64,000 nt of DNA from a virus, in IMG/VR virus record IMGVR_UViG_3300010965_000002, positions 112,944 through 176,943 of that record; one strand, given 5' to 3'. The notes under the pieces were generated by a model. That model saw only the letters and a program-made list of their open reading frames with translations, ran no database searches and was not told where the DNA came from. Each line of letters starts with the position of its first letter. Positions within the stretch are counted from its first letter, which is position 1. This document shows positions 35,982 to 45,319 of this stretch, in pieces. The position numbers were made by a program, and so were the translations under genes.

Positions 35982-37328
35982 ATGCAAATTCACGTTTTAG
36001 ACCCACAGTACGCGGGTGACCCCGAAGCCGTTGCGATGTTGCAGGCTTTCTATAGCCGCAGCGGTGAAAGCATTGTCTCTCGCCTCGAACGCCTCGGCAA
36101 CAATCTGACCGCCGTTAAAAAGGCGTTGCATCGCTACTTCATTGGCTACGGGCATCAAAGCATCGGTGACTGTGGTGTTGTCACTGTGTTCATTGAAGGC
36201 GTGTCTATTCTTGCAGCCAAGGCACTCCAAGAAAACCCTTTGTACAACGGTCAAGAATGCAGCACACGCTACATCGAACTCTCAGGCGCTATGCACGTTG
36301 GTTCGCCTACGGCTATGTGGTGGCAAGCTGAGTACCACAAGGTACGTGAAGCTGTACTCAAAGGTGTGCGTGCCGAGCACCCTTACGAAGCTGGCGACGG
36401 TTTCGACATCAACAACCCTGAGCATACCAAGCCTGGCTCGAACTACGCTACTTGGGAAAACGCAACAACCGCGCGTGCGTTTGACATTGCCCGTGGCTGG
36501 ATTCCTTGTGACGCATTGACCAATTTGAGTTGGTCTATCACACTGCGCAAAGCAACTGAAATCACTACCCAACTCAGTGGTCATCCAATGGCTGAGGTAC
36601 GTGAAATGGCTATCGCCTTGCGCCAGAAACTGTGTGAAGCCTATCCGCATGGTATTGCTGCACCAACAAAGGCCGACTCCGAACATGCCGAATGGTTGCG
36701 TTCAAATCTTGACGCATGGTATTGTTCGCCTGTATTGCCGTTGGACTGCACTGTTGACGCAAAGGCTTCTGCACCTTACGCTTGCTTTACGCAAGAGCAG
36801 TTGACATTCATCAACAACCGTCCTCGCCATACTCCGTTGCCTCACGGCTTGGAAACGATGGCTCACTTTGTTATTCAAGGTCAGATCGACTACGGCACCT
36901 GGCGTGACATGCAGCGTCATCGTCGCAACATCGGTCTGCCTCCAGCAGTTCGACCCACAGAGTTCCACACTTGGTACTGTGAGCAGGTGCAACGCTACGT
37001 TCCTGGTATGGCAGGTGATGACTTCGTGGCTGCCGCTATGAACCAACTGGACAAGCAAAAGAAGAACGACTGGAATCCCGATGTGTCGCAGTACGACTGT
37101 CCACTGGGTACTGTTGTTCCTTACCGCTACGAAATGGGTCTGTCACAAGCCCTGTACTTCGCTGAATTGCGTAGTGGTAATACGGTACACGCCATCCTCC
37201 GACCGATTGCACAGCAACTTGCTGATGCTTTACGCGGGTACGGTATCCGTGTTGACAATGACAATCAACCCGCACGCTTTGATTTGCGTCGCGGCACTCA
37301 AACTATTTATGCAAAGGAATCAGCATGA
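35982..37328 (+). CDS. thyX: flavin-dependent thymidylate synthase, long two-domain type
   Basis: YGHQSI, QECSTRY, RDMQRHR, ELRS, H..LR motifs. Confidence 0.8.
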   Translation: MQIHVLDPQYAGDPEAVAMLQAFYSRSGESIVSRLERLGNNLTAVKKALHRYFIGYGHQSIGDCGVVTVFIEGVSILAAKALQENPLYNGQECSTRYIELSGAMHVGSPTAMWWQAEYHKVREAVLKGVRAEHPYEAGDGFDINNPEHTKPGSNYATWENATTARAFDIARGWIPCDALTNLSWSITLRKATEITTQLSGHPMAEVREMAIALRQKLCEAYPHGIAAPTKADSEHAEWLRSNLDAWYCSPVLPLDCTVDAKASAPYACFTQEQLTFINNRPRHTPLPHGLETMAHFVIQGQIDYGTWRDMQRHRRNIGLPPAVRPTEFHTWYCEQVQRYVPGMAGDDFVAAAMNQLDKQKKNDWNPDVSQYDCPLGTVVPYRYEMGLSQALYFAELRSGNTVHAILRPIAQQLADALRGYGIRVDNDNQPARFDLRRGTQTIYAKESA

Positions 37329-38581: not shown

Positions 38582-39078
38582 TGAGCGACGAAGAACTTTC
38601 ACCCGAAGCACATGCACTGTACCAACTGTTTGACTCCCTAGTGACAGACGATTGGGCTGATGTACACTCGTATGCAGCTTACGTTGCACCCATTGCTCGA
38701 TGGCTACCTCCACCGAAGTGGAGAGCGTTGTGGCACGAACTCGGGTCACATCACATGTTGGCCTACAGCGTAAGATCAGGCACTGACTGTGTATCTCGCT
38801 GGCGTGATCGCTATCCGTCCAATCCAAAGGACCACTTGTTAACCCAGACGGTCTTTGTAAATTTGGAAGCACGCTACGCAGAATGGACTACCTTCTGCTG
38901 GGACGCATGGAACGAATTCCTACTGTGGTGCGGTATCCAAACCGAAGCCCTTTGGCAACTGAACAACGCCTTCTTGATTCTCAGTCAGGCAGGCGTATTA
39001 GAAACTCGAAATAGCGGCACCGAAATACGGGTGACGCCAGAAAGCGCAAAATGGAAATTAAACAAGGCGTCTACGTAA
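38581..39078 (+). CDS. hypothetical protein
   Basis: Coupled to both neighbours. Confidence 0.6.
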   Translation: MSDEELSPEAHALYQLFDSLVTDDWADVHSYAAYVAPIARWLPPPKWRALWHELGSHHMLAYSVRSGTDCVSRWRDRYPSNPKDHLLTQTVFVNLEARYAEWTTFCWDAWNEFLLWCGIQTEALWQLNNAFLILSQAGVLETRNSGTEIRVTPESAKWKLNKAST

Positions 39079-40019
39079 TTGGTAACGACGGTAAGAAGAA
39101 CTGGTTGATGCAGGTCTCCAGCGTGAACGATGGCATGGTTTACGGTCACCTAGACTCTAACCGTGCATACGCACCTCAGCAAGGTGAGTTCATGCTTAAA
39201 CAGATCGTTGCCATCTTGGGTGACAAGCCAGCACCTGGTAGTGCTTACGGCTGTACCATTGAACCCTTCTGCCGTACACTGGTGCATCCAGATTGGGGCA
39301 ATGTTCACTGGCACATGCAGATGCCCAAGACCGAAAAGCTGGCGCTGAAAAACGCCTTGGACTCAGTTGCCAAGAAACTCAACCGGGCAAAGCTCTTTGC
39401 CTTCGTAGCAGAAGGCGCTCTTGAACTTGAAGTGCGTCCACCGAAGGGTCGATACACAGGCATGTATCACTACAAGATCAAGAACGGTGAGAACCTTGAC
39501 CGCATGATCTTGCGTCCAAAGATGGGCGTGCCAATGGACTACGTGGTTGCACACGAAAGCGGGCACGGCGTCTGGTATCGTTTGCTGACACCCTCACAAC
39601 ACGCACGTTGGATTCGCCTCTATCACAGCTATACCAAGCTGCAAGAGTTTGAACCCCATCATCTGCGTAAGCTGCGGGATGACTACATTGCCGACAGCGT
39701 ACCTGTGCGTGACTTTCGAGGTCAACTCGAAGAAGCTCAAGTCCTGCTGTTCGACAACCTAATTTCAACTCTGTGCGGCAACACACGATTGACCAATCGC
39801 CACCTTGATGTACTTGCTGAGACAGCCTCACTGGAAACTATCAAGGAAAGCTGGCCGACGCACATTGAAGACAGCGACTTTGAAATCGCAGTCACTGAAT
39901 ACGGCACTAACAACCCCGAAGAATTCTTCGCCGAAGCCTTTGCTTACTGGTTGCTAGGTCAGAAACTGCCTAAACGTGTGCAGGCCGCTATGGACAAAAC
40001 CGTTAAGGCAATAGTGTAA
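39051..40019 (+). CDS. zincin-like metallopeptidase
   Basis: VAHESGH (HExxH) and distal EEFFAEAFA. Confidence 0.7.
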   Translation: MEIKQGVYVIGNDGKKNWLMQVSSVNDGMVYGHLDSNRAYAPQQGEFMLKQIVAILGDKPAPGSAYGCTIEPFCRTLVHPDWGNVHWHMQMPKTEKLALKNALDSVAKKLNRAKLFAFVAEGALELEVRPPKGRYTGMYHYKIKNGENLDRMILRPKMGVPMDYVVAHESGHGVWYRLLTPSQHARWIRLYHSYTKLQEFEPHHLRKLRDDYIADSVPVRDFRGQLEEAQVLLFDNLISTLCGNTRLTNRHLDVLAETASLETIKESWPTHIEDSDFEIAVTEYGTNNPEEFFAEAFAYWLLGQKLPKRVQAAMDKTVKAIV

Positions 40020-40028
40020 ATATGCACT

Positions 40029-40226
40029 ATGGACACACTGACTAACTGGCAACTCTACTCCTTGGTGGCAACACTGATTACGTTAGCCTGTTGCTTATAC
40101 CTTCCAAGCAAACTCAGCGGGTTTAACAATCTCGTTGGTTCCATTCTAGTCGCTGCATTAGGGCCCATCGTTTGGCCCTTCTGCTTGGCGGCTGTTGTTA
40201 AACATTCTCAGAGAAAAACCTCATGA
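40029..40226 (+). CDS. small membrane protein
   Basis: Two hydrophobic segments; GTGTAAATA 6 nt upstream. Confidence 0.55.
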   Translation: MDTLTNWQLYSLVATLITLACCLYLPSKLSGFNNLVGSILVAALGPIVWPFCLAAVVKHSQRKTS

Positions 40227-40912
40227 GCAAAATTCCAAAGCAAGTAGCTGACCTCAAAGGTGCAAACTACAACCCTCGTTACATCACTGCCAAGCAACTG
40301 GCTGCCCTGAAAAAGAGCATCGAAGAATTCGGTGACCTGAGTGGTGTGGTGTTCAACCGTTCAACTGGCGTGCTGGTGTCAGGTCACCAGCGTATCAAGT
40401 CAATCAAAGGCAAGCCCTCAAAGATCGTCAAGACAACGGTGAAGAAAGACCGTCAAGGCACTGTTGCCCTCGGTACGATTGAAATCACCGAAGTCGATAA
40501 GACAATCACACGCATCCCCTATCGTGAAGTCGAGTGGGATGACAAGCTGCAAGAAATGGCTGCTAACGTGGCTGCTAACGCCGCAGGTGGTGAATTCGAT
40601 CAAGCCAAGCTGGGCGCGATCATGGCTAAACTCGAAAAGGGTAAGTTCGACGTTGAACTGACCTCTATTGACAATTGGACAACTGCCAAGGCTATCGGCA
40701 AGTTCAAGAAGTCAAAAGACGAAGATGGCGATGGTGAAGGCAGTGCTGGTGACGAAGAAGAAGGCTTCGCAGTTGTTGACCCTAAAGCAATGGAGTTCCA
40801 ACATACTTGCCCCAAGTGCAGCTATCGTTGGAGCGACAAGGTGGTCAAGACCGTGAAGAAAGTTTCTGCGCCCGCTGCACAACCTGCGAAAAAGAAACCT
40901 AAGAAGGCTTAA
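40223..40912 (+). CDS. ParB/Srx-like protein with C-terminal zinc ribbon
   Basis: NYNPR, LKKSIEEFG, LVSGHQR; CPKC; Lys-rich tail. Confidence 0.75.
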   Translation: MSKIPKQVADLKGANYNPRYITAKQLAALKKSIEEFGDLSGVVFNRSTGVLVSGHQRIKSIKGKPSKIVKTTVKKDRQGTVALGTIEITEVDKTITRIPYREVEWDDKLQEMAANVAANAAGGEFDQAKLGAIMAKLEKGKFDVELTSIDNWTTAKAIGKFKKSKDEDGDGEGSAGDEEEGFAVVDPKAMEFQHTCPKCSYRWSDKVVKTVKKVSAPAAQPAKKKPKKA

Positions 40913-40914
40913 CC

Positions 40915-41487
40915 ATGACAACCATCGTAGGCATTCGCCGTGAACAACATAAAGAAGTGTGGATTGGTAGCGACACGCTGTTGACCAGTCCTGGCCTGCG
41001 TCTTGGCAAAATGAGTAAGACTGCATTGGTTAATGCAGGTACCGAAGATGAAACCTGTATAGCTATTGCCGGCCCTGCCACTGCAATCTTGGCGGTACAG
41101 GACATCTTGTCCACTCACGACTTCGATGACTGGTCAACTACCTTGGCCGTGTATCGAAACATTCTGGCAATACACTGCGTTATGAGGGACCACCACGGTC
41201 TAATCACGCAGGAGCACGAAGACGATACCTTTGAAAGCTCACAGTTTCAATCAATCGTGGCTAACTCCCACGGTATGTGGATGACGCTCAATAGCCGAGA
41301 AGTCATCCCCGTGGTTAACCTGTGTGCAATCGGTTCCGGTAGAGAAATCGCAATCGGCGTTGTTGAAGGTATGGGAATGCTTGACCCAGAAGCCACAATC
41401 AAACGTGCGCTTATGGTTGCAAGCCAGTATGACAAGAGCACAGGCAAAGAGGCAGAAATATGGTCAAACGAAAGAAACCCGCACTGA
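40915..41487 (+). CDS. Ntn hydrolase (proteasome/HslV-like, N-terminal Thr)
   Basis: MTTIVG, GSDT, AIGSGREIAIG, ASQYD..TG. Confidence 0.75.
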   Translation: MTTIVGIRREQHKEVWIGSDTLLTSPGLRLGKMSKTALVNAGTEDETCIAIAGPATAILAVQDILSTHDFDDWSTTLAVYRNILAIHCVMRDHHGLITQEHEDDTFESSQFQSIVANSHGMWMTLNSREVIPVVNLCAIGSGREIAIGVVEGMGMLDPEATIKRALMVASQYDKSTGKEAEIWSNERNPH

Positions 41488-41840
41488 CTTTGCGCAAAGC
41501 AAAGCAGCTTGCACAGCACATGATAGTAAGCGGCCTCCTCACAAGAGCAGTAGCCGCTGAAATCGAACGCCGAGGTCTAGTACCTAACGCACAGTTCAAA
41601 GCAATCGTTGCGGCCAACGACATCGGTAAGAAGCTGCAAGGCATGTTACCTCAGCTTGGTATGCAGTTCAAAGATGGCAATCCAGAGTTTCCCTACACTG
41701 TTTGGCGTGGCGCAAGTGCGCCTTTCATTCTGGCTACACCGACAATCGTTGCAGAGGCTGAGGCGCAAGCCTTGAAACTCAGCGACGAGGTGTACACCAG
41801 TTTGACAACCGTTGCAGTTGCCACTGAGGTAGCACCATGA
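41460..41840 (+). CDS. hypothetical protein
   Basis: Overlaps neighbours in the modification cluster. Confidence 0.55.
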   Translation: MVKRKKPALTLRKAKQLAQHMIVSGLLTRAVAAEIERRGLVPNAQFKAIVAANDIGKKLQGMLPQLGMQFKDGNPEFPYTVWRGASAPFILATPTIVAEAEAQALKLSDEVYTSLTTVAVATEVAP

Positions 41841-42973
41841 TTCTCGCTTCCAAAATGCCTTCAATGGCAGAGATAAACAAGAAAGCCAAGACTGCGAAAT
41901 TCACCGCTGTCAGTTTCTTTTCTGGTATGGGTGGTGGTAGCATAGGCATGAAAATGGCTGGCTACTCTGTTCGCTACGCAAACGAATTCGTCCCTGTAGC
42001 CTCGGACGTTTACGATGCAAATAGCGGAGGCTTGAAGATTGACCGTCGTGATATTCGCAAGGTGACTGCAAAGAGCGTTTATGCTTTGAGCAAGATTCCA
42101 AAAGGCGAAATCGACTTGATCGAAGCCAGCCCTCCATGCAAGGCATTCAGCAGCACGCAAGCACGCAAGCAAGGTCGTGACTTCGGTGAAGAAGTTGATT
42201 ACAGCGAAGGCATCAAACAGCGCGTTGACGATCTGTTCTTTGAATTCTGCCGTGTCCTCAAACACCTGCAAGGTAAAGTCTTCATTGCGGAGAACGTGCC
42301 TGGCTTGGTGAAAGCAATCAACCGTGGATACTTTGTTGAAATCCACGAGGCACTTACCAACTGCGGTTACAACGTACAGGCTGTTGTCATTGACCCGTCG
42401 CGTCTTGGTGTTCCTCAGAAGCGTGAGCGTCTGATCTTCATGGGCATTCGCAATGATCTATACAAAGCCGGATTCCGTCATGCTTGGCCTAAGCCATCAA
42501 AGCATGAAACCACCGTTCAGGAGTGCTTGCCGCACATCGAACGCATTAAGACCACCCGTGGCTACAGTCATGCAAAGTCTCCGAGCCCTACTATTACCGC
42601 ATCAGATCACAGTATTGGAGAGACTGCAAACTTCTCTTGCGGCGGGTTCGTGGAAACCAATGAAGGTGTGTCCCGCAAGTACACCATCGACGAACTGAAA
42701 GTTCTCAGCAGTGTGCCCAAAGACTTTGTGTTCCCACCGCAAGAAAAAGAATCGAAGTCTAAGCACTTCATTCGCAGTTGGGAACGTCTTGGTCGCATTC
42801 ACGTCCCATTGCAGGTGTATCACATTGCGTCTGAAATACGCAAGAACATCTTAGAGCCTTACTACCAAAACAAAGGTAAACCAAATGACAACCAAAGCCC
42901 TCGAAGCGCAAAGAAAGCGCCAGCAGCAACAAAGCCCTCAGCCAGCAAGCCCGCAAGTAAGAAGCCGCGATAA
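41837..42973 (+). CDS. C5 DNA cytosine methyltransferase fold, probable carboxymethyltransferase
   Basis: FSGMGG (I), SPPC (IV), ENV (VI), QKRER (VIII); motif X reads GRIHVP instead of GN(A/S)VP. Confidence 0.85.
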   Translation: MILASKMPSMAEINKKAKTAKFTAVSFFSGMGGGSIGMKMAGYSVRYANEFVPVASDVYDANSGGLKIDRRDIRKVTAKSVYALSKIPKGEIDLIEASPPCKAFSSTQARKQGRDFGEEVDYSEGIKQRVDDLFFEFCRVLKHLQGKVFIAENVPGLVKAINRGYFVEIHEALTNCGYNVQAVVIDPSRLGVPQKRERLIFMGIRNDLYKAGFRHAWPKPSKHETTVQECLPHIERIKTTRGYSHAKSPSPTITASDHSIGETANFSCGGFVETNEGVSRKYTIDELKVLSSVPKDFVFPPQEKESKSKHFIRSWERLGRIHVPLQVYHIASEIRKNILEPYYQNKGKPNDNQSPRSAKKAPAATKPSASKPASKKPR

Positions 42974-43631
42974 GCTCGAAGTCCCTACCGACTGGACTTT
43001 CCACAGCAAGAACGTGGCCGACAACTTTGACATCCATGTGCGGGAGCAGTTGCCTTGGTACGATCTGGCTACAGGCATGGTTGCACACATTGGTCGCCAC
43101 TATCTGCCTGAGAATGGTTTGATGTACGACTTGGGTGCAAGCACTGGCAATATCACTCACGCTCTGGCCTCTGAACTGGACAAGCGTAAAGTCAAGGCAA
43201 TCAGCATTGACAACGCCGAACCCATGAAAGACGTGTGGCGTGGCGTAGGCGACTTTGAAGTGGCCGACATTCGTGAATACGACTACAAGCCTTACGACTT
43301 CTGCGCTTGCTTCCTCGTGTTGATGTTCTTGCCGCCAGTACAGCAGCGTCAGGTGTTTGAAAAGCTCTACAAGAGTTTGAACCCTGGTGGTGCGCTGGTG
43401 ATCTTTGACAAGACTGCCTCGTTCAATGGATACCTTGGAACTGTGATGCACCGCGTTACTCTGGCAGGCAAAGTTGCTACAGGCGTTCCGTCCGAAGCCA
43501 TCGTCAAGAAAGAGTTGTCCTTAGCTGGAGCACAACGTCCGATTGACCCTGATGCTCTCCTGTTCAATCAGTACGGTGTCAAGGAAGTGTTTCGCTTTGG
43601 GGAGTTCGGTGGTTGGGTCGCTACAAAATGA
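42885..43631 (+). CDS. CmoA-like carboxy-SAM synthase / class I methyltransferase
   Basis: DWTF...VADNFDIHVREQLPWY, YDLGASTG, IDNAEPM, LVLMFLPP..R, LNPGGALVIFDK. Confidence 0.75.
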   Translation: MTTKALEAQRKRQQQQSPQPASPQVRSRDKLEVPTDWTFHSKNVADNFDIHVREQLPWYDLATGMVAHIGRHYLPENGLMYDLGASTGNITHALASELDKRKVKAISIDNAEPMKDVWRGVGDFEVADIREYDYKPYDFCACFLVLMFLPPVQQRQVFEKLYKSLNPGGALVIFDKTASFNGYLGTVMHRVTLAGKVATGVPSEAIVKKELSLAGAQRPIDPDALLFNQYGVKEVFRFGEFGGWVATK

Positions 43632-43680: not shown

Positions 43681-44100
43681 ATGTTCAATCCTTACAGACA
43701 CTTAATGTCTAAGGTAACAGCTCTGCTGCGTACCGAAGCCAAAATGAGTGCAGACGAACGAAGGGCCAATCAATGGCAACTACTCGTCAAGTTTTGTGAC
43801 ACCCAGATTACTGTCGGCAAAGGTGATGTGAACACCATCTTTGTCCAGATGGGTGTAAACGGAAAACGCCGCACTTGTTATCCTGATCAGATACTTGAGA
43901 AGCTCAGTGAACTGGGTAGCCAGAAGCACCATCGCTACGAAGTTGTCAATGCAGAAGGCGAGTCAGACATGTTTTTCAGCCTGGTGACTTTGAAGCAGCA
44001 AGTTACGCCTGAAAAGGGTATGAAGCTGTACGGTCACACTGACAAGCGTGTGCTTCTGCATAAAACACATCAAGCCCTTAACGGCTACGACTGGAAATAA
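43681..44100 (+). CDS. hypothetical protein
   Basis: GAGG RBS; abuts AsnB-like gene. Confidence 0.6.
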   Translation: MFNPYRHLMSKVTALLRTEAKMSADERRANQWQLLVKFCDTQITVGKGDVNTIFVQMGVNGKRRTCYPDQILEKLSELGSQKHHRYEVVNAEGESDMFFSLVTLKQQVTPEKGMKLYGHTDKRVLLHKTHQALNGYDWK

Positions 44101-44101
44101 C

Positions 44102-45019
44102 ATGGGTAAGAAAAACCTAACCAAAGAACAGTTCGCTATGCACACTAAACGTGCTGAACGCCTAGCGAAAGTCATGGTTGACCACGTTGCTGGTTTCAAG
44201 CCCAAGAAGGTTGCAGTGCTGCTTAGTGCAGGCGTTGACAGTCATGCTTGTCTGTTCGCAGCAATGCGGGCAAAGAAACAGATCACCTGTTATTCATTCA
44301 CCCTGGATGATCGCAAGAGCACTGACTTCCGCCTCGCTGAACAAACAGCCGCCGCTTTCGGCTTGCCTTTTGTAGGCGTAAAGCTATCAACTGATCTACC
44401 TGTTCTCAAAGACTACTTGTGGGATGTTTTCAACGTCTACAACACAGGTAGCATCCATGTGAACAAGTCAAGCGTCGAATGCCTATGGCCTTTGTACAAC
44501 GCTTTGAACCGCACTACTGAGGAACACGGTGCGACTATGATCGGCTTCGGCGGTGATGCCTTCTTTTGCACCTTGCGTAGTCAAAAGAAACGTCTGCATG
44601 AGTACGAACTTGTCAAGCAGGAATACTTCAATAACGTTGTCACCAACAAAGGCGACGTGCAAACCCTGATGCTTGAGTCATGGCTTGCCAAACACTCACC
44701 AAGGCATCGTTTGATTATGCCTTTCCATACCAAAGAAGTCTTCGACATCTTCAAGGGTATGGGTCCATTTGACCCTGGCTGCAAGCCTATCCAGAAAGCT
44801 CCAATTCGCTTAGCCTTCTGGGATGAATTCCAGCAGACTGACGTGCGGGTACATCAGAGCTTCCAGAAAGGTGACAGCGGTATCTCTGACCACTTCGCAG
44901 AACTCCTTATTCCTAGCGATTGGAATACACGAGGACTAAAGAGTGTTAAAGGCGTCTACAACGACCTGGAAACTGGTGTTATCCGAAAGCCGGGTCGGTC
45001 ATTGTTTAGGTCTCACTAA
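44102..45019 (+). CDS. asparagine synthase C-terminal-like ATP-dependent amide ligase (no glutaminase domain)
   Basis: VLLSAGVDS PP-loop, YSFT, GFGGDAFF, MPF, K..IR.AF, FQKG. Confidence 0.75.
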   Translation: MGKKNLTKEQFAMHTKRAERLAKVMVDHVAGFKPKKVAVLLSAGVDSHACLFAAMRAKKQITCYSFTLDDRKSTDFRLAEQTAAAFGLPFVGVKLSTDLPVLKDYLWDVFNVYNTGSIHVNKSSVECLWPLYNALNRTTEEHGATMIGFGGDAFFCTLRSQKKRLHEYELVKQEYFNNVVTNKGDVQTLMLESWLAKHSPRHRLIMPFHTKEVFDIFKGMGPFDPGCKPIQKAPIRLAFWDEFQQTDVRVHQSFQKGDSGISDHFAELLIPSDWNTRGLKSVKGVYNDLETGVIRKPGRSLFRSH

Positions 45020-45166
45020 TTTGATATTGTGAAAACGGTTGTGGCACTCCTGCTGTAGGACCTCAAAAAGGACCTAGAGTGGAACCCAAAGTTTGTGGAC
45101 ACTAATTTCATTATGTAGGACCTTGGTACTACATCCTTTTAACGTTCAATCCTCATGAGGCCATAT

Positions 45167-45319
45167 ATGAACAAATCTCACGCTCTCCATGCTTTCGCCA
45201 ACGGCGGCGGCGCTGCTGCTAAGCCTGCCAAAAAGGGCGGCAAAGCTGCTGCTAAAGGCAAGCCTGCTGCTGGCAAGAAGTCTGCTGCCAAGAAGCCAGT
45301 AGCCAAGAAAAAGCGTTAA
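45167..45319 (+). CDS. 50-aa Lys/Ala-rich histone H1-like protein (below ORF-track cutoff)
   Basis: Hand-translated MNKSHALHAFANGGGAAAKPAKKGGKAAAKGKPAAGKKSAAKKPVAKKKR; GAGG RBS; own terminator. Confidence 0.8.
   Translation: MNKSHALHAFANGGGAAAKPAKKGGKAAAKGKPAAGKKSAAKKPVAKKKR

Follow-up and report, generated by a model that had tools for sequence, protein, structure and literature searches.

A probable CmoA-CmoX-CmoY-type cassette for DNA cytosine hypermodification, with lineage-specific additions, in a PaBG-like jumbo phage known from metagenomes

The window analyzed here is a stretch of 64,000 nucleotides (nt) from an IMG/VR virus record (IMGVR_UViG_3300010965_000002, positions 112,944 to 176,943). 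The record is linear, comprises 176,943 bp, is about 72% complete by CheckV, and represents the genome of a PaBG-like jumbo phage for which metagenomes are the sole source. Between positions 40223 and 45019, the window encodes a homolog of DNA cytosine C5-methyltransferases (C5-MTases), denoted CmoX, a homolog of the carboxy-S-adenosylmethionine (carboxy-SAM, or Cx-SAM) synthase CmoA, a small conserved protein that is the product of open reading frame (ORF) 139, and an asparagine synthetase-like ligase, CmoY; a ParB-like gene lies upstream (Table 1). Homology, conserved residues, protein fold, and gene linkage together indicate that this stretch is probably a CmoA-CmoX-CmoY-type cassette for the hypermodification of phage DNA, with a chemistry that would follow that of phage S-B43. 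A preliminary description of the same DNA, made from the sequence letters alone, read the CmoX-CmoA pair correctly and pointed to a similar arrangement in a cyanophage; that precedent is Synechococcus phage S-B43, whose system was published in December 2025 (Yang et al., Nat Commun 2025, PMC12783734), so that the present cassette is a further example of it.

Table 1. Features of the cassette and of the genes lying within it (window coordinates)
Feature	Position	Strand	Remarks
ParB-like gene	40223-40912	+	229 aa; phrog_620; conserved partner located upstream of CmoX in PaBG-like phages
HslV/proteasome-like Thr N-terminal nucleophile (Ntn) hydrolase	40915-41487	+	190 aa, begins MTTIVG; phrog_1040, E = 2.9e-12
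ORF126	41460-41840	+	126 aa; no family match; stop overlaps the CmoX start (ATGA)
CmoX, DNA cytosine C5-carboxymethyltransferase homolog	41837-42973	+	378 aa; PF00145; matches 8YF3 by sequence and fold
Codon of catalytic Cys101 in SPPC	42137-42139	+	Aligns with S-B43 CmoX S95-C98; SPPC in 81/81 related loci
Codon (CGC) of Arg320, predicted carboxylate-binding residue of motif X	42794-42796	+	Aligns with S-B43 CmoX R350
Overlap of CmoX 3' end and CmoA 5' end, two reading frames	42885-42973	+	89 nt
CmoA, carboxy-SAM synthase homolog	42885-43631	+	248 aa, the first 30 or so forming an N-terminal extension; TIGR00740, phrog_4752
ORF139, conserved accessory protein	43681-44100	+	139 aa; phrog_23597; between cmoA and cmoY
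CmoY, Asn-synthetase-like ATP-dependent amide ligase homolog	44102-45019	+	305 aa from ATG 44102; PF00733, phrog_26038

The preliminary description held that CmoX is a complete C5-MTase with an unusual motif X, and the family and motif searches bear this out. The protein matches Pfam family PF00145 (E = 1.2e-45) and TIGR00675 (E = 1.7e-39), and its motifs, located by script, are FSGMGG at residues 28 to 33 (motif I), SPPC at 98 to 101 with Cys101 (motif IV), ENV at 152 to 154 (motif VI), and QKRER at 194 to 198 (motif VIII). Motif X reads ERLGRIHVP at residues 316 to 324, with GRIHVP starting at residue 319 and arginine at residue 320. No other C5-MTase was found in the 177-kb record. The top sequence match in the PDB is 8YF3, the structure of the S-B43 enzyme (SpCmoX; E = 4.8e-41), with M.HaeIII and M.HhaI behind at about 1e-16. 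The motif X segments of the two proteins pair as ERLGRIHVP and ERVGRMVPP, and both HMMER and MAFFT alignments place R320 at SpCmoX R350, the position of N304 in M.HhaI. In a MAFFT alignment with the PaBG and S-B43 homologs, SpCmoX F25, E47, F48, D69, C98, and R350 correspond to the identical F28, E50, F51, D72, C101, and R320, so that all six cofactor-binding and catalytic residues cited for SpCmoX are retained; ENV and QxRxR are present as well. An AlphaFold2 (AF2) model of CmoX, built on 40 homologs (predicted local distance difference test [pLDDT] score, 87.3), likewise retrieved 8YF3 first in a Foldseek search (E = 4.5e-26; template modeling [TM] scores, 0.67/0.75), ahead of M.HhaI (3e-21).

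In S-B43, CmoA produces carboxy-SAM from S-adenosylmethionine (SAM) and prephenate, and CmoX, a C5-MTase homolog, uses it to carboxymethylate cytosines in GC sites at C5 (PMC12783734). In 8YF3, Arg350, which takes the place of M.HhaI Asn304, contacts the carboxymethyl group of Cx-SAM; wild-type SpCmoX uses Cx-SAM only, and the R350N mutant is dead (PMC12783734). A basic residue at the motif X asparagine also allows the M.MpeI variant N374K to use Cx-SAM and to make 5-carboxymethylcytosine (5cxmC), as cited in PMC12783734. That variant is an engineered CpG enzyme with a lysine at this position and relies on the CmoA of its E. coli host, whereas the window enzyme is natural, carries an arginine, and is accompanied by its own CmoA and a downstream ligase. 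The sequence and fold matches to SpCmoX support the reading of the window CmoX as a carboxymethyltransferase that would act from Cx-SAM on DNA cytosine and would not use SAM.

The CmoA homolog is assigned by the concordance of several searches. In NCBIfam, the CmoA equivalogs TIGR00740 (E = 4.7e-22, 78.8 bits) and PRK15451 rank first and second, and the top three PDB entries by sequence are 4GEK (E. coli CmoA; the best), 1IM8 (Haemophilus influenzae YecO), and 4IWN (E. coli CmoA); the window protein (E = 2e-50), the S-B43 CmoA (SpCmoA), and the PaBG CmoA share phrog_4752. The TIGR00740 score lies below the family cutoff of 193.3 bits, as do those of SpCmoA (115.6) and PaBG CmoA (130.5), whereas E. 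coli CmoA scores 455. This shortfall weighs little, because the validated SpCmoA also fails and the cutoff is tuned to bacterial tRNA enzymes. In an alignment of 67 sequences, the invariant positions, in E. coli numbering, are W18, F20, F28, Y39, D62, G64, S66, G68, F137, R143, K165, K185, and K198; the window protein keeps W37, F39, F48, Y59, D82, G84, S86, G88, F148, K176, K196, K209, L213, and F241, the R143 column being the one exception (see below). E. coli CmoA R199, regarded as a key residue, was not used as a marker, its column being unconserved in phage CmoAs, including the validated one. The closest relative of the window CmoA is that of Moraxella phage Mcat8 (43.6% identity, compared with 24% to PaBG CmoA), and it belongs to a different lineage than its PaBG counterpart. 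We infer that the window CmoA would make Cx-SAM from SAM and prephenate. The bacterial CmoA/CmoB pathway for uridine 5-oxyacetic acid (cmo5U) in tRNA employs the same Cx-SAM synthase family, to which the best PDB match belongs; there, the acceptor is 5-hydroxyuridine (ho5U) of tRNA, whereas here it would be the C5 of DNA cytosine, reached through a C5-MTase fold. Searches of the 177-kb record for CmoB (TIGR00452) and the AroQ chorismate mutase (PF01817) found neither, an absence that is not proven because the record is incomplete.

To place the arginine and its neighbor in a broader context, 81 related IMG/VR loci were compared, together with their fetched flanks; the R320 column is covered in 79 of these. 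SPPC is present throughout, and arginine occupies the R320 column in 77/79 loci, so that Arg320 is no chance substitution. A CmoA homolog lies within the flanks of 76 of the 81 loci. The two loci without the arginine carry leucine (L014) and asparagine (L035), and both are among the five that lack cmoA; cmoA accordingly accompanies 74/77 loci with arginine and 0/2 without it (Fisher P of about 0.003, hand calculation), a positive outcome of the co-occurrence test proposed in the preliminary description. On a larger scale, the published survey listed 5,615 candidates for CmoX that carry both SPPC and R350, neighbored by CmoA in 4,257 cases, by the ligase in 2,251, and by ParBc in 1,660 (PMC12783734). 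These data bear on the possibility that the MTase is an ordinary SAM-dependent enzyme producing 5-methylcytosine and that the CmoA-like gene encodes an unrelated tRNA or small-molecule methyltransferase. Such an arrangement could account for the CmoA scores below the NCBIfam equivalog cutoffs and for the generic methyltransferase Pfam domains that also match this protein, but it is highly improbable given that Arg320 replaces the canonical asparagine, that wild-type SpCmoX with this arginine did not use SAM, that arginine and cmoA strongly co-occur across the relatives, that the record yielded no CmoB with which CmoA could act on tRNA, and that the validated phage CmoA falls below the cutoff as well.

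Two genes downstream of CmoX's neighbor CmoA lies the gene for CmoY, which, like the ParB-like gene, was overlooked in the preliminary description. Its ORF opens at GTG 44048, giving a protein of 305 to 323 aa depending on the start; the likely start is the ATG that follows the ORF139 stop by 1 nt. The product matches PF00733 (E = 1.8e-7; 31.6 bits against a cutoff of 21) over the synthetase domain only, with no glutaminase domain. The PP-loop residues S42, G44, D46, and S47 are conserved, and other invariant residues are kept (K122, E126, PxQK at 229 to 232, H251, and Q255). The best PHROG is phrog_26038 for the window protein (1.5e-54), the S-B43 protein SpCmoY (2.2e-30), and PaBG gp180 (5.7e-138). 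The window CmoY is 36% identical to PaBG gp180 (35 to 36%) and 27% identical to SpCmoY; there was no PDB sequence match at E ≤ 0.01.

In S-B43, CmoY is an Asn-synthetase-like ligase that turns 5cxmC into the glycine amide 5gcxmC, and virion DNA contains 5gcxmC but no free 5cxmC (PMC12783734). Because a CmoY-type ligase is present here and S-B43 virion DNA carries the amide, the final base in this phage is probably an amide of 5cxmC, with 5cxmC itself as an intermediate. The preliminary description had the phage write 5cxmC, the formation of which is supported by sequence, fold, and the S-B43 match; it was incomplete in passing over CmoY. That 5cxmC could nevertheless be the end product, with the Asn-synthetase-like gene inactive or serving another purpose, would fit the presence of CmoY in the flanks of only 29/81 related loci, many CmoX-CmoA phages probably stopping at 5cxmC, as well as two unusual substitutions in the window CmoY (see below). 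This outcome is unlikely, as the gene is packed into the same operon, immediately behind the preceding stop, is the sole Asn_synthase-type gene of the 177-kb record, retains the PP-loop and the other invariant residues, and has the same arrangement in PaBG and in loci L003 to L006; the lack of free 5cxmC in S-B43 virions argues in the same direction.

Several observations weigh against assigning the cassette to the CmoA-CmoX-CmoY type. The phage is known from metagenomes alone, without an isolate, and its record is only about 72% complete. Among the three compared, the window CmoA diverges the most, with 23% identity to SpCmoA and 24% to PaBG CmoA, and a 99%-conserved arginine column (E. coli R143, SpCmoA R133) pairs with its Gln154, with Arg155 adjacent; this mismatch probably reflects a one-residue register shift, R155-Q156 matching E. 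coli R143-Q144. The target-recognition region of CmoX differs in length from that of SpCmoX, so that a GC target cannot be assumed. Finally, CmoY carries Phe176/Asn177 at the arginine column of SpCmoY R150 and Cys227 at the asparagine column of SpCmoY N199, two columns at which the conserved residue is found in SpCmoY and, overall, in at least 85% of the 26 family members. PaBG CmoY keeps both, and the CmoY of locus L003 also deviates at both. The two substitutions suggest that the amine may differ or that the activity may be altered.

It is accordingly possible, if on balance doubtful, that the ligase attaches an amine other than glycine and that the final base is a 5cxmC amide other than 5gcxmC. 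The departure of the window CmoY from most of its family at the two columns, the similar departure in L003, and the low identity to SpCmoY would be consistent with this, and ligase clusters with different pocket residues and unidentified amines have been reported (PMC12783734). Conversely, the best PHROG is common to the window protein and SpCmoY, most invariant residues are kept, and the two positions are not established as lining the amine pocket.

Taking the CmoA-CmoX-CmoY reading as a whole, CmoA would convert SAM and host prephenate to carboxy-SAM. CmoX would then act on double-stranded phage DNA after replication, flipping out target cytosines; Cys101 would attack C6, Arg320 would hold the carboxylate of the cofactor, and the carboxymethyl group would pass to C5, giving 5cxmC. 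CmoY would adenylate the carboxyl group of 5cxmC and join it to an amine, yielding an amide; by analogy, the amine may be glycine. The modified DNA would be protected against host nucleases, and the ParB-like and 139-aa proteins may be lineage-specific helpers.

The lineage-specific extras of the cassette are ORF139 between cmoA and cmoY, a CmoY without two conserved residues, and the 89-nt overlap. ORF139 matches phrog_23597 (E = 1e-15) and is 26% identical to PaBG gp179 (150 aa; E = 4e-12), which matches the same PHROG. When 1.84 billion representative proteins were searched exhaustively, 84 representative clusters of this family were recovered at E ≤ 0.001, nearly all of 130 to 180 aa, and 7/7 sampled relatives, down to E = 1e-5, adjoin CmoA and/or CmoY homologs. 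The idea that ORF139 always accompanies CmoY was rejected: in locus L086, ORF139 comes after CmoA and before the gene for a helix-turn-helix-like protein, and the flanks fetched (about 6 kb) contain no CmoY. The AF2 model of ORF139 is of high confidence (pLDDT 97.9), and a Foldseek comparison with the PDB gave no match at E ≤ 0.001. The best Z scores in an exhaustive VIA search were 6.4 (2IT9), 6.3 (Pur-alpha 3K44), and 6.3 (YkuJ), all over residues 1 to 81 only; these lie below the usual background, and no fold assignment was therefore drawn. Protein-atlas matches all scored below 0.8. Searched with a profile, the complete S-B43 genome yielded no member of the family, in agreement with the reconstitution of the pathway lacking ORF139, which points to an accessory role rather than a part in the core chemistry; the family is not mentioned in PMC12783734. 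In another locus (L096, positions 1181 to 1972), a 263-aa protein (P0011) joins a weak winged-helix (MarR-like) N terminus, with a match below the Pfam cutoffs, to an ORF139-family domain and is flanked by a gene for a 379-aa CmoA-like protein and an Asn-synthase-like gene. In L093/L003 (IMG/VR 3300028829 contig) and L098, an extra DUF1611 (PF07755/PF17396) P-loop protein is encoded between CmoA and CmoY and may provide a further tailoring or substrate-supplying step. A bolder proposal is that the cassette of this lineage amounts to more than CmoA-CmoX-CmoY, with the structurally novel, hitherto undescribed phrog_23597 family as a DNA-associated component of the pathway and a variant CmoY attaching a non-glycine amine to yield an undescribed 5cxmC amide; we regard this combination as speculative and rather unlikely.

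The overlap between cmoX and cmoA has exactly the length given in the preliminary description, and the downstream gene is identified as cmoA by its TIGR00740 and PDB matches. Before the conserved PxDWTF block, the sole start among ATG, GTG, and TTG codons is ATG 42885, which AAGGT precedes at a distance of 7 nt. Codon reading revealed no CTG or ATH near-cognate start in that region either; the overlap is therefore no ORF-calling artifact. In its two frames, the shared DNA encodes a Lys/Pro/Ala-rich CmoX tail and the N-terminal extension of CmoA, both of which are lacking in PaBG and S-B43. The tail comprises about 38 aa, is predicted to be disordered from about residue 346 to residue 378, and is probably a DNA-affinity appendage. 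No indel was observed in the overlap in about 96%-identical contigs from other metagenomes. In relatives, the CmoA start mostly coincides with or adjoins the end of CmoX, the two genes sharing 4 nt (ATGA) or abutting without a gap, directly before PxDWTF, and the 89-nt overlap is, as judged from these sequences, peculiar to this phage lineage. An apparently recurrent 88-nt overlap in six relatives was dismissed as an artifact of an in-frame ATG inside the QQWER codons, the true junction being the 4-nt ATGA. Positions 45155 to 45319 (+), directly after CmoY, encode a highly basic protein of 54 aa whose tail is rich in Ala, Lys, Pro, and Gly and resembles that of histone H1; in a genome-wide scan of the 177-kb record, it was the only protein besides CmoX with such a tail, and the end of the ParB-like protein is similar but weaker. 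The window CmoX also matches phrog_36001, a profile of 715 positions, over positions 460 to 708, a hint that longer fused forms exist.

The ParB-like protein matches phrog_620 ("ParB-like partition protein"; E = 1e-30) and is 44% identical to PaBG gp176; Pfam, including ParBc (PF02195), gave no match at E ≤ 0.01. A phage ParB homolog has been reported to activate a post-replicative thymine dioxygenase on double-stranded DNA (PNAS 2026, PMC13229309). There, too, the ParB homolog lies beside a post-replicative base-modifying enzyme, which is a 2-oxoglutarate dioxygenase, unlike CmoX; activation of base modification by the ParB-like protein is thus plausible here. The HslV-like hydrolase and ORF126, which separate the ParB-like gene from CmoX, were considered as pathway members and rejected: neither adjoins CmoX in any of the 81 related loci, and both are treated as unrelated insertions.

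The closest cultured relative of the cassette is the block gp176 to gp180 of Pseudomonas phage PaBG (Baikalvirus), which is annotated and uncharacterized and has the same order as the window: a ParB-like protein, a C5-MTase with the arginine, a CmoA-like protein, a small phrog_23597 protein, and an Asn-synthase-like protein. The identities, apart from those already given, are 46 to 48% for CmoX; gp176 directly precedes CmoX, whereas the window has two genes in between. S-B43 is alike in the three enzyme families, SPPC, the carboxylate-binding arginine, four identical cofactor-contact residues, a ligase without a glutaminase domain, the clustering of the genes, and the ParB-type neighbors noted in the PMC12783734 survey. 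The two differ in gene order (ParB ... CmoX-CmoA-ORF139-CmoY in the window and CmoA-CmoY-CmoX in S-B43), and the sequences are far apart, with a CmoX identity of 35% next to the lower values for CmoA and CmoY given above. The target-recognition region of the window CmoX is shorter and different, and the window alone of the two has the basic CmoX tail, the 89-nt overlap, an ORF139 family member anywhere in its genome, and the two deviant CmoY positions.

The closest cultured relatives of the cassette genes are found in jumbo phages, which besides PaBG include phages of Erwinia, Dickeya, and Yersinia; a megablast search of the cassette against cultured phages gave no match. For many of the jumbo phages of Erwinia, Dickeya, and Yersinia, the alignment with the window CmoX is confined to its residues 101 to 351, and CmoA and CmoY are found about 17 to 20 kb from the CmoX match, the cassette being split. 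Several studies of wastewater and freshwater yielded metagenomes with relatives of about 96% identity, among them one contig that spans the whole cassette; in these relatives, both ORF139 and the HslV-like gene stay in frame through paired compensating indels. The whole stretch is also covered by contigs from RNA libraries, although contigs cannot show transcription. The cassette is surrounded by genes of DNA metabolism, including those for ribonucleotide reductase, an exonuclease, a sigma-like factor, a single-stranded DNA-binding protein, a UvsX-like recombinase, SbcCD, and a clamp loader. Farther upstream, a putative 322-aa Zn-metallopeptidase is encoded at 39051 to 40019 (+; phrog_17197, E = 6e-60); an endopeptidase gene lies near the PaBG cassette too, suggesting shared synteny. 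A 448-aa protein with a weak thymidylate synthase PHROG match is encoded at 35982 to 37328 (+), about 4.5 kb upstream of CmoX, and in locus L090 (positions 1576 to 2889) a 437-aa ThyX (PF02511) is encoded two genes upstream of CmoX.

The principle gains little from this example: the December 2025 paper already described 5cxmC and its amide as natural bases and counted candidates for CmoX in viral metagenomes by the thousands. What the cassette adds concerns its carriers and its extras. Carriage by PaBG-like jumbo phages, including cultured phages of Pseudomonas, Erwinia, Dickeya, and Yersinia, makes the chemistry directly checkable there. The cassettes also have a well-folded, conserved accessory protein, and the CmoY variant may point to a different amide; all three are small, testable leads relevant to work on phage DNA hypermodification and to enzyme tools that write carboxyl handles on DNA.

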